Assembly (NCBI GenBank): GCA_963785245.1 | Contig: CAWAUO010000019.1 | Location: forward strand, 31,462 to 95,461 | Source of the DNA: an uncultured Actinomycetota bacterium | Lineage (GTDB): Bacteria > Actinomycetota > Acidimicrobiia > Spongiisociales > UBA5794 | DNA: 64,000 nt | Direction of reading: 5' to 3' | Shown: in pieces, positions 5,301 through 7,940 of the stretch | How the letters are laid out: every line of letters begins with the position of its first letter | How positions within the stretch are numbered: position 1 is the stretch's first letter | Position numbers: made by a program

Positions 5301-7940
5301 CAATCAGCAGATCGCCGGCAAGGCGCTGGCGTTCAAGAAGGCGTCGGAGCCGGCGTTCGCCGACTACGCGACCCAGATCGTGCGCAATGCCACGGTGCTC
5401 GCCGACACGATCATCGAAGACGGCGCACGCGTCGTTTCCGGCGGCACGCAGAACCACATGTTCCTCGTCGACACGTCGAGCATCGATCCCGAACTCACCG
5501 GCAAGGAAGCCGCGATCTTCCTCGATGAGATGGGGATCACGCTGAACCGCAATTCGATCCCGTTCGATACCCGCTCGCCGTTCATCACGTCCGGTATCCG
5601 GATGGGGACACCGGCGGTGACCGCAGTTGGGATGAAGCAAGAGCAAATGCTGACCCTCGGCAACGCCATCGTCGAACTCCTCCGGCGCCGCAACGACCCC
5701 CATGCGGTCGCGACGATCAAGGAAGCCGTCGACGAGTTGATCGAAGCCTTCCCCGCCTACCCCGCCGACTTCCCCGGCTACGCCTAGAACCCGAGAGACC
5801 CCGCTCTCCAATTCTTCCCCTGAGGGGGAAGGAATCGAAGGGGAGAAGGAATTGACTCCTATTTGGAGTCTTGGCCGGTAACGGTGTTGTAGATAGCGTC
5901 CAGGACGTCGTCGCAATGGTGCATCACCTCGTCGTTCCAGAAGCGGATGATCCGGAAGCCCTGCGACCTGAGCCACCGGTCGCGGTACGTGTCGTGCAGT
6001 GATCCAACGTGCTGACTGCCGTCGATCTCCACGATCAGCCGATGCTCGTAGCAGACGAAGTCGCAGATGTACCGGCCGATAGGCTCTTGCCGTCGGAACT
6101 TGGCTGGGATGTCATGGCGGATGTGGTACCAGAGCAGAGCTTCCTCCTCGGTGAGTCGACGCCGGAGCACTTTCGCGTTCCGTTCGGCGTGTTCATCTCG
6201 AGGAAAGCGAGGCATGGTCGCACAGTGATTCATCCCGCCCAACGGTTCAACCCCTCCCAGAATATTCCTTCCCCTCAGGGGAAGGTGGCAGCGGCAATGC
6301 ATCCCTGCATTGCCGGTGACGGAAGGGGTTTCCACCTTGCCGCGATCTCTAGTTTCACTACCGGGGCGACGAGAGGTAGCCTCTGGGGCGGCAAGTGGGG
6401 GCGCGTGTTTCCGCCCTGACAACCTGGGAGATACCTGCAGATGGACGGTCCGAGGAGTCGAGGCATCCCACCGAAAGAGGCGATCACCGGTGGGTTCTCC
6501 GACGGATCCGACTTCTTCACCTACATCCTTGCGGGACTCCTCATCGGCCTGCTCCTCGACTGGTTCACCGGGTGGAGCCCCTTCATGACCATCCTGTGGT
6601 CGCTGTTCGGCATCGCTGTCGGCTCCTGGCGCATGTGGGTGCGTTCGGCATCGCTCGAAGAGGACGCCGAGGGGATCAGTCATGGCATCTGACGTCGACC
6701 CGCTTGTCCGCTACGGACCCGTCCCCGACGAGCGTCCGATTGAAGCGATCATCAGCCGGCACATTGCCAAGCGGGGCCTCATCGTCGCCCCGATTCTTGC
6801 CCTCATCTTCGGGACTCATCCAGGGCTGGTCAGGTGCGATTGCGGCCCTCGTCGGCGTCGCCATCGTGGTCGGCAACTTCCTCCTCGGCGGCTGGATCAT
6901 GTCCCGGGCGGCGCGAGTATCCATGAACCTGTATCATGCCGCCGCCTTGTTCGGATTTCTCATCCGGTTGGGACTCATCACGGTGACGATGCTGATCATC
7001 GCCAACGTGACCGACCTCGATCGGATGGCGATGGGTATTTCGGTAGTGGTCAGCTATCTGGTGCTGCTGTCGTGGGAGGCAGTGGCGGTCATGAACGGCG
7101 CGGAAAGGGACCTCGAGTGGAGCAACTAATCCTGGCGGCCGGGGAGTGCGATCCCTCAGCTGACATCATCTGTCGGCCGGAGAACGTGGTCGACCTCTTC
7201 CAATTCTCCGACCCGCTGTTCACGATCGGGCCGCTCGGATTCACCCGCACCGTCCTCCTGATCTTCCTCGTCATGCTCGTGGTGCTTTCTCTGCTGTTCT
7301 TCGGCCTGCGTCGCAAGAGCGTGATTCCGTCGAAGTTCGGCGTGGCGATCGAGAGTCTCGTCGTATTCGTCCGCGATGAGATCGCCGTCGGCATCATCGG
7401 ACCCGAGGGCATCGAAGTACTTCCCGTGGCTGTTGTCGATCTTCCTGTTCATCCTGATCGGCAACGCCTTCGAGGTCCTGCCGCTCGTGAACTTCCCGGT
7501 CACATCGCGCATGGCGATCCCCCTCGGACTCTCCCTGCTGACCTGGGTGATCTTCGTGTTCGTCGGCTTCAAGAAGAACGGGTTCTCATACTTCACCGGT
7601 CTCGCATGGCCGAAGTCGGTTCCGCTTGCGCTGCGTCCACTCGTCGGTCTCATCGAGGTCGTGTCGACGTTCATCCTGCGGCCCATCACGCTGGCCGTCC
7701 GACTCTTCGCCAACCTCGTAGCCGGTCACCTCATGCTGACACTTCTGCTCGTCTCGGGGTACGTCTTCATGTCGAGTGTCACCACGATCGGCGCCCGTGC
7801 CCTCATCGGAATCCCGTGGTTCGTCTTCGGCCTCGGCATCTACATGTTTGAAGTGGTGGTCATCATCTTGCAGGCCTACATCTTCACGCTGCTGTCCGCG
7901 GTCTACGTCCAGACATCTGTTCATCCCGAGCACTGAGTAA

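Follow-up and report, generated by a model that had tools for sequence, protein, structure and literature searches.

A DUF559 nuclease gene bracketed by inverted triplex-motif repeats in the glyA-atpZ spacer of an uncultured actinobacterium

We analysed a 64-kb stretch of contig CAWAUO010000019.1 from an uncultured Actinomycetota bacterium, called here the window, in which a gene of the DUF559 family lies between glyA and the atp operon. The gene is flanked by two palindromes that form part of larger modules of the intrastrand triplex motif (TM) type. The reading that we favour, with confidence slightly better than even, is that of a DUF559 nuclease cassette, bracketed by inverted TM modules and inserted in an ancestral glyA-atpZ spacer, whose nuclease would act on TM DNA. 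The window cassette is one case of a cross-phylum association between a gene and a repeat, centred on the gene, a relation like that of RAYT to REP/REPIN. No link of DUF559, YcjD or Vsr to REP, REPIN, RAYT or triplex repeats is reported in the PMC and bioRxiv literature, a coverage that most subscription journals fall outside. Repeats and proteins of both families were known separately, and we did not find their association described before; it is what the present analysis adds.

The inserted segment, its gene and its conserved flanks are the following (L numbers, used below, denote the loci compared):

4525-5787, plus strand: glyA (serine hydroxymethyltransferase; Pfam SHMT, E=2.9e-147), the left conserved flank of the insertion
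5788-6350, no strand: variable inserted segment of 563 bp, delimited by a five-way alignment and made of the left TM module, the DUF559 gene and the right TM module
5859-6215, minus strand: DUF559 nuclease gene, 118 aa, Pfam PF04480
6441-6692, plus strand: atpZ-like gene (ATPase_gene1; PF09527, E=7.5e-6), first gene of the atp operon and right conserved flank

The DUF559 gene was recognised as a minus-strand open reading frame (ORF) at 5859-6233 (124 aa) that matches PF04480 with E=1.3e-36 and 125.3 bits, against a gathering cut-off of 20.6, the alignment spanning profile positions 3-108 of 109. Its start is likely the ATG at 6213-6215, giving 118 aa, instead of the upstream ATG at 6233, which gives 124 aa, since the orthologues in L001 and L005 and a paralogue in L006 all open with MP(R/Q)FPR. 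Every neighbour (prmC, a sua5-like gene, glyA, the atpZ-like gene and the atp operon) is on the plus strand. DUF559 is the sole minus-strand gene from the prfA-prmC-sua5-glyA block to the atp operon; the first-pass annotation, made from the sequence alone, had noticed that its strand is opposite to that of all neighbours.

The repeats on both sides of the gene comprise these elements:

5795-5809, minus strand: outer end of the left module, GAGACCCCGCTCTCC (minus strand GGAGAGCGGGGTCTC), a degenerate G-rich tail
5811-5835, no strand: left palindrome (hairpin 1), ATTCTTCCCCTGAGGGGGAAGGAAT, with its pyrimidine arm at 5812-5820 and its purine arm at 5824-5832
5840-5852, no strand: extra half-site, GGGGAGAAGGAAT, a purine-arm remnant of what in L005 is an intact second module
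6249-6258, minus strand: inner tail-like tract, AACCCCTCCC (minus strand GGGAGGGGTT), which pairs with 6321-6330
6264-6285, no strand: right palindrome (hairpin 1), ATTCCTTCCCCTCAGGGGAAGG, with an ATTCC prefix, two arms and the loop TCA
6267-6274, no strand: right pyrimidine arm, CCTTCCCC, followed by the loop TCA and the purine arm GGGGAAGG at 6278-6285
6289-6318, plus strand: hairpin 2 (CAGCGGCAATGCA tccc TGCATTGCCGGTG), of variable sequence, occupying the second loop of the triplex motif
6321-6330, plus strand: G-rich tail, GGAAGGGGTT, that is GGAAGGGG(TT), mirroring purine arm 6278-6285 exactly

The two palindromes had been described as inverted copies of each other, and so they are: the right copy, reverse-complemented, equals the left copy plus one extra G, with 14 nt and then 11 nt each 100% complementary. 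The match in direct orientation is 73%, the inverted fit being better. A 17-nt core (up to 3 mismatches) occurs at two sites in the 64 kb, both of them the palindromes, against a shuffle expectation of 0.06; none of 100 shuffles reached two matches. The first-pass annotation took the repeat for a unit of 23 bp. The positions hold and the size does not, as the right unit extends to 6330 and contains hairpin 1 (6267-6285), hairpin 2 (6289-6318) and the tail (6321-6330). As single-stranded DNA, the 101 nt from 6240 to 6340 are predicted to fold as a three-way junction (-29.7 kcal/mol, z = -6.3), closed by the pairing of tract 6249-6258 with the tail. The left unit consists of hairpin 1, the half-site 5840-5852 and the outer GAGACCCC end, which carries the GGGGTCTC signature seen in dispersed copies (for comparison, L054, L073, L092 and L115 have tails ...GGAAGGGGTCTCTCG). 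The half of hairpin 1 made of ATTCC and the pyrimidine arm is often found in two to four tandem copies just outside the hairpin, for instance GATTCCTCCCCCTGCCCCGCCC three times; such copies were located in L006 (5660-5740 and 6455-6520), in L092 and at 5824-5855 of the window. They could be slippage products or extra half-sites for protein binding.

The palindromes are neither terminators nor simple transposon ends, but members of the G/C-rich family of intrastrand triplex motifs (TM, BoxC, PIT). This motif was described by Holder et al. 2015 (PMC4666352) under the names TM_ECO, BoxC and PIT, preceded, according to the citations in that paper, by Hoyne et al. 2000. E. coli MG1655 has 23 TM copies, of which five occur as doublets that pair two subtypes in inverted orientation, whereas E. 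coli IHE3034 and Salmonella are TM-poor; TM_ECO forms a stable triplex in vitro by circular dichroism and nuclear magnetic resonance, and TMs occur in more than 260 genomes, at loci associated with instability (PMC4666352). The repeats have been catalogued since the 1990s, with function, origin and associated protein given as unknown (PMC4666352). The right module of the window has the composition of the class II purine motif, namely a pyrimidine arm, a complementary purine arm and a mirror purine arm (T allowed for A): it is a full TM at 6267-6328, with tail GGAAGGGG at 6321-6328 and 0 tail mismatches. Since the tail mirrors the purine arm, it can act as third strand in the groove of the hairpin, and we predict that tract 6321-6330 is the third strand of a purine-motif intrastrand triplex. 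The inner tract 6249-6258 mirrors the minus-strand purine arm with one mismatch, giving a TM match on the minus strand at 6251-6285. This minus-strand reading and the left module satisfy the triplex-motif definition only with mismatches.

The modules share with the TM of Holder et al. the succession of C-rich arm, loop, G-rich arm, loop and mirror G-rich arm of the class II purine motif, the intergenic dispersed copies, the frequent inverted doublets of two subtypes and the unstable loci. They differ in the stem, which in the window is CCTTCCCC / GGGGAAGG and not CCCTCNCCC, and in the second loop, which has 35 nt and a hairpin of its own whereas the ITxF definition sets 1-6 nt; the window module is thus a structural variant. 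A third difference is that the published work found no gene associated with TM, the link to DUF559 being added here.

The mirror relation, which a purine-motif intramolecular triplex requires, was evaluated on an unbiased set of 136 hairpins adjoining DUF559 genes in metagenome contigs, with the tail at most 70 nt away and T allowed for A. A perfect mirror tail was found for 72 of these hairpins, against 12.4 +/- 3.2 when arms were swapped between loci (300 permutations, maximum 22); a direct copy of the arm instead of its mirror was found for 27. The excess of mirror tails persists over 36 distinct arm sequences. Moreover, the three strands change together between orthologous loci, from CCTTCCCC / GGGGAAGG / GGAAGGGG in the window to CCTCCCCC / GGGGGAGG / GGAGGGGG in L001. 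Mirror covariation supports the predicted triplex of the window module. Hairpin 2 varies in sequence yet keeps its pairing, with 22 out of 30 distinct loop-2 sequences folding at z < -2. We discarded a G-quadruplex reading of the G-tracts as the main explanation, as the A/T positions of the tail covary with the arm in mirror register.

The dispersal of the repeat was surveyed with the exact hairpin-1 pattern (22-24 nt) in one genome per species, and the figures of this survey are those among the matches listed. At least 117 stretches carry the motif; they come from about 70 assemblies, with up to 10 stretches in some genomes, which belong to Actinomycetota, Alpha-, Beta- and Gammaproteobacteria, Nitrospirota, Chloroflexota, Planctomycetota, Armatimonadota, Elusimicrobiota, Bacteroidota and groups of the candidate phyla radiation. 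Outside Actinomycetota it runs on as ...GGGGGGAGG TTAGG TGGGGGTG. One stretch, L095, shares with the window a module of 69 nt at 96% identity. Rather than being terminal repeats private to the cassette, the palindromes are members of a dispersed cross-phylum family already described (PMC4666352). Dispersed copies were observed in related metagenome-assembled genomes (MAGs), such as CAWIHT01, the source genome being covered by the 64-kb window only. From the repeat side, just two of these 117 stretches have DUF559 within 600 bp, nor does any other gene family recur beside the dispersed copies, the most frequent being found at 4 loci at most. The first-pass annotation had reckoned that a repeat occurring genome-wide beside unrelated genes would speak against a cassette. 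Such an occurrence is literally the case in related genomes. The cassette is not refuted by it, given how strong the association from gene to repeat is, the same relation as that of RAYT to REP. In a MAG of candidate division FCPU426, a TM doublet lies inside a palindromic element of about 150 bp with outer arms TTAGTATCTGTTGCGGAAA...TTTCCGCAACAGATACTAA, MITE-like (miniature inverted-repeat transposable element) and present in at least seven copies (L015, L022, L059, L066, L107, L112 and L124).

The gene-side association was measured on 80 metagenomic loci, which are the best-scoring relatives (DUF559 40-55% identical) of one DUF559 subfamily. Hairpins with an all-pyrimidine 5' arm have a density of 5.2/kb in the 150 nt upstream of the gene and 3.5/kb downstream, against 0.07/kb elsewhere on the same contigs. 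For full TMs (stem of at least 8) the densities are 2.56/kb near DUF559 and 0.044/kb further away, and a full TM, or more than one, lies no further than 200 nt from the gene in 72 of the 80. In this sample, short DUF559 genes nearly always have TM modules on their flanks, mostly as an inverted bracket, whereas the majority of TM copies are dispersed away from DUF559. Hairpins up- and downstream of DUF559 are inverted repeats of each other, loops included, and they are often a recurring pair of two subtypes, a pairing that echoes the doublets of types A and B of E. coli. In 30 of 49 loci, the nearest module upstream and the nearest one downstream both aim their tails at the gene. In the lineage of the window, the DUF559 gene is positioned between doublets and not inside one. 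We rejected a universal transposon model in which tails always face the gene, since it is true for most loci and reversed in the window lineage. Holder et al. reported neither a flanking-gene pattern nor mobility genes at TMs, and their paper does not mention DUF559 or ycjD (PMC4666352). DUF559 ORFs in databases often run into the motif and acquire extensions such as HPPLIPPLKGG, SPSPNPSHQGR and PSPTRGEGRK; this read-through accounts for spurious 'PLPxGEG / HPPLxPPLKGG' extensions in the annotation of DUF559 ORFs. On one metagenomic contig (L129, 1584-2522), two convergent DUF559 genes have a common downstream sequence, an inverted duplication of the cassette.

A related situation is found in E. 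coli K-12, where the last codons of ycjD fall in a degenerate TM and a canonical TM_ECO follows about 170 nt downstream. Of the 788-nt fabI-sapF spacer that holds ycjD and the TM, 80% or more of the length is present in 3375 of 5426 complete genomes, and sampled genomes without it match its first 123 nt only. In O157:H7, a TetR regulator and a resistance-nodulation-division (RND) efflux gene occupy the place of ycjD; a 2026 paper describes them as the eef operon, lost at least twice, with ycjD in its place (PMC12817139). An E. coli TM consensus matches each E. coli genome at 18 places (median). A fragment of the ycjD 3' end (GGAGACGGTGCTGGAGAATATTC...CTGAACCG) is duplicated between ycjD and the canonical TM_ECO in L205 (5250-5440), and it looks like the trace of a past recombination between cassettes. 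A supposed pairing of TM and DUF559 on E. coli plasmids was discarded, the neighbour being an unrelated hypothetical gene between IS4 elements.

The history of the site was reconstructed from related loci. An alignment of five of them, the empty locus L207 included, shows that homology ends at the glyA stop codon and restarts with AGTTTCACTAC at 6351-6361. The atpZ-like gene is syntenic in all relatives compared. At the empty sites L207/L208, L209/L210 and L211 (GlyA 82%, 76% and 74% identical, respectively), atpZ directly follows glyA, and both DUF559 and a TM module are absent from the spacers of L207-L211 (94-160 bp). Since homology halts at the glyA stop and resumes at 6351, and since relatives have empty sites, segment 5788-6350 is an insertion into the glyA-atpZ spacer, retained in one sublineage and replaced in another. 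In L206 (GlyA 95% identical), a different DUF559 gene (47% amino acid identity) occupies the same site on the plus strand, flanked by the repeat variant GTCCCCCGGCC gga GGCCGGGGGAC ... GCAGGGGGGCAT. The empty sites and the replaced cassette thus bear out the insertion into a conserved junction that had been proposed from the window. As the empty sites contain no TM, the cassette seems to come with its repeats, and the target of the nuclease, if any, would not be a TM doublet pre-existing at the locus. The L206 cassette (4270-4870) has a hairpin variant that is not homopurine; upstream of glyA in this locus, sulfatases replace prfA-prmC-sua5.

Loci L001-L005 keep the order glyA-DUF559-atpZ, with DUF559 homologues 78-90% identical to that of the window. 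Modules of like kind surround them, longer and more complete than in the window, so orthologous loci with the gene and without the repeats, a case considered in the first-pass annotation, were not what we found. L005, with about 95% DNA identity to the window, has a complete tail-to-tail module doublet beside the gene. It also has, at 1760-2790 (about 5820-5841 of the window), an insertion sequence (IS) of the DDE_Tnp_1/DDE_Tnp_4 type between the arms of a hairpin 1, with terminal inverted repeats GAGG(T/C)GCGGCGGAAT. Since this doublet and this IS differ from the window, modules gain and lose parts between near-identical genomes. Some IS elements habitually target REP sequences, and the position of the L005 element resembles that habit. 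The paralogue in L006 (69% identical) lies in an unrelated glycosyltransferase context, where it is surrounded by four or more copies of this module, in support of the nuclease cassette first proposed.

Further information about the DUF559 protein was obtained from structure prediction. Its AlphaFold (AF2) model, built from 32 homologues, has a pLDDT of 88, and Foldseek placed first PDB 3HRL (TM-score 0.88), then the catalytic domain of I-Bth0305I (3R3P, E=2.5e-4) and Vsr (1VSR, E=6e-3). 3HRL, an uncharacterised DUF559 protein of N. gonorrhoeae, also matches the window protein by phmmer (E=9e-22). Residues D58, E69, D71 and H75 are invariant across the 32 homologues. In the model, the window protein thus has the restriction-endonuclease-like fold of 3HRL, with the acidic and His residues kept. 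A 2012 survey of PD-(D/E)XK proteins places I-Bth0305I and Vsr in one group with DUF559 (PMC3424549). The kinship with Vsr is limited to the fold level (the Foldseek match to 1VSR); Pfam gives no match to the Vsr profile in the window protein (besides DUF559, only sub-threshold MTES_1575). The NCBIfam scan returned only PRK09767 (DUF559), under its cut-off. Pfam found no Y1_Tnp domain in the protein, and there is no cytosine methyltransferase, the Dcm-type partner of Vsr, in the insert, whose neighbours are glyA and atpZ. The ratio of nonsynonymous to synonymous substitution rates (dN/dS) of the gene is 0.25 against L005, 0.16 against L001 and 0.13 against the L006 paralogue, values by which it is under purifying selection. 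A recent or purely selfish insertion does not agree with synteny in L001 and L005 and dN/dS of 0.16-0.25.

To our knowledge, DUF559, a very large family with a nuclease fold, has no known role. We tentatively propose, at somewhat less than even confidence, that the protein partner so far lacking for TM/BoxC/PIT repeats is DUF559. Its members would be small nucleases of the Vsr/homing fold that recognise a hairpin with a third strand and cut it, leading to spread, turnover and instability of the repeats and of the cassettes themselves. In each module, the pyrimidine and purine arms form hairpin 1 and the mirror G-rich tail can lie in its groove as third strand; in the actinobacterial lineage of the window, hairpin 2, of variable sequence, fills the loop before the tail. 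The DUF559 protein would recognise TM DNA, either as sequence or as folded hairpin or triplex, and nick or cut it. Such cutting is suggested by the fold of Vsr and I-Bth0305I and by the retained acidic and His residues. Repair or copying afterwards would spread, delete or exchange TM modules and the DUF559 cassette. Cutting of TMs by DUF559 could thereby explain the known instability of TM loci. Two long-standing unknowns, the TM repeats and DUF559, would then explain each other. If this is true, it would give a mechanism for TM-linked genome instability, possibly a structure-specific nuclease that recognises triplexes, and a second long-lived gene-repeat partnership in bacteria after REPIN/RAYT, as an independent system of that type built on a different enzyme and DNA structure.

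The cassette resembles several known systems. As in REP/REPIN-RAYT (Nunvar 2010; Bertels & Rainey 2011, PMC3116915), one gene lies between inverted copies of a dispersed palindromic repeat, doublets are inverted, inheritance is vertical with purifying selection, and repeat variants track the gene. The window protein, however, is a PD-(D/E)xK Vsr-like nuclease and RAYT is a Y1 HUH transposase; TM has a mirror tail, hence triplex potential, besides the hairpin, and is common to many phyla, unlike the lineage-specific REPs. DUF559-TM is not a member of REPIN/RAYT, since its enzyme is no Y1 transposase, and the likeness is one of analogy only. I-Bth0305I (3R3P) and Vsr (1VSR) share their catalytic fold with the window protein, which differs from them in its length of about 118 aa without an extra DNA-binding domain, from I-Bth0305I in the lack of an intron or intein context, and from Vsr in the lack of an adjacent cytosine methyltransferase and of a Pfam Vsr match. 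With free-standing homing endonuclease genes it shares the occurrence, in different relatives, of a filled and an empty allele at one site; a homing-endonuclease reading is plausible, as suggested by the fold and by the filled, empty and replaced alleles. A short cassette bounded by inverted structured repeats also recalls MITEs and IS elements (terminal inverted repeats; hairpin ends of IS200/IS605), with gene-less doublets resembling internal-deletion derivatives and again filled and empty sites among relatives. Unlike these, the window cassette has no transposase and no target-site duplication was found; moreover, the orientation of its modules varies by lineage. An integron-cassette reading was rejected, integrase and attC-like array being absent nearby.

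Several observations weigh against a nuclease cassette acting on TM DNA. The left unit of the window is degenerate: it lacks hairpin 2 and its fold (z = 0.16) is no better than shuffles. Target-site duplications, which the first-pass annotation had advised to look for, are not in evidence: no direct repeat is apparent at the borders TAG|AACCCGAGAG ... GATCTCT|AGTTTCAC, which are fixed only within a few bases. The synteny of DUF559 and its purifying selection in three relatives suit a host-useful or domesticated gene at least equally. TMs are far more numerous than DUF559 genes, and the origin of the gene-side sample in one subfamily bears on the generality of the rule. In the window lineage the geometry is reversed, with the ATTCC side of hairpin 1 toward the gene and the tails outward, so that a single fixed 'transposon end' geometry is lacking. 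Holder et al. did not see a stable triplex in double-stranded DNA or in in vivo dimethyl sulphate footprinting (PMC4666352). We found no assayed activity for the DUF559 family in the searchable literature.

The main rival is a host repair nuclease, which we consider unlikely and still stronger than the other alternatives (passive co-localisation, terminator or operator, defence). In such a case, TMs would be structural obstacles or elements of genome architecture, DUF559 would remove or nick triplex or hairpin structures in replication without mobilising TMs, and the siting of the gene among TMs would reflect autoregulation or simple co-inheritance. Purifying selection, syntenic retention, a fold related to the repair enzyme Vsr and the ties of TMs to replication-type instability (PMC4666352) all agree with it. 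It leaves unexplained, however, the inverted bracket of modules in 30 of 49 loci, the different DUF559 genes with different TM variants at the same site of near-identical hosts, and the absence of TMs from empty sites. In another explanation, TMs merely gather or arise at indel junctions that small dispensable genes such as DUF559 happen to mark, with no functional link. This passive co-localisation appears quite improbable to us. TM loci are indeed prone to rearrangement (PMC4666352), an IS landed in the L005 module, and the E. coli ycjD region stands where other strains have the eef operon; but TMs are enriched 50-70-fold beside DUF559 relative to the rest of the same contigs, and we estimate that the enrichment would still be several-fold if all the background were assigned to an assumed intergenic fraction of 10-15%. 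Besides, no second gene family recurs beside TMs among the matches listed, and gene and repeat adjoin closely, the ends of ORFs extending into the motif.

The remaining two explanations have very little probability in our judgement. The position of the hairpins, the left between two stop codons and the right in the divergent DUF559-atp spacer, would suit expression signals, the left as a bidirectional terminator shared by glyA and DUF559, which converge on it, and the right as an operator, insulator or 5'-UTR (untranslated region) structure between divergent promoters. Neither hairpin has a T-tract, the promoter/terminator scan called neither palindrome and its counts equalled the shuffle level, the left fold is no better than shuffles, and Rfam gave no match on 5000-7000 (E <= 1). 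Relatives with an empty site express glyA and atp although they lack these elements, copies of the motif are scattered through many genomes, and work cited in PMC4666352 reports that PIT motifs act neither as promoters nor as terminators. A defence or toxin island, that is, a stand-alone restriction-like nuclease acquired against phage, would be in keeping with the restriction-endonuclease-like fold and with an accessory insertion whose presence varies among relatives. Against this option, which the first-pass annotation had also raised, the DUF559 gene matches no PADLOC defence family, the 563-bp insert has no methylase, antitoxin or partner gene, and the flanking triplex repeats are left unexplained.

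Two other features of the window deserve mention. The atpZ leader (6351-6440), chiefly GGTAGCCTCTGGGGCGGCAAGTGGGGGCG at 6375-6403, has no Rfam match and is conserved in all relatives, including those with an empty site; it may be a promoter or leader element of the atp operon. A second, degenerate TM-like element (CCTCTCCC acggagt GGGGGAGG ... GGAGGGGC) lies at 2414-2509, just upstream of the prmC start (2579), and the prfA-prmC spacer of L005 (6089-6184) holds its counterpart.

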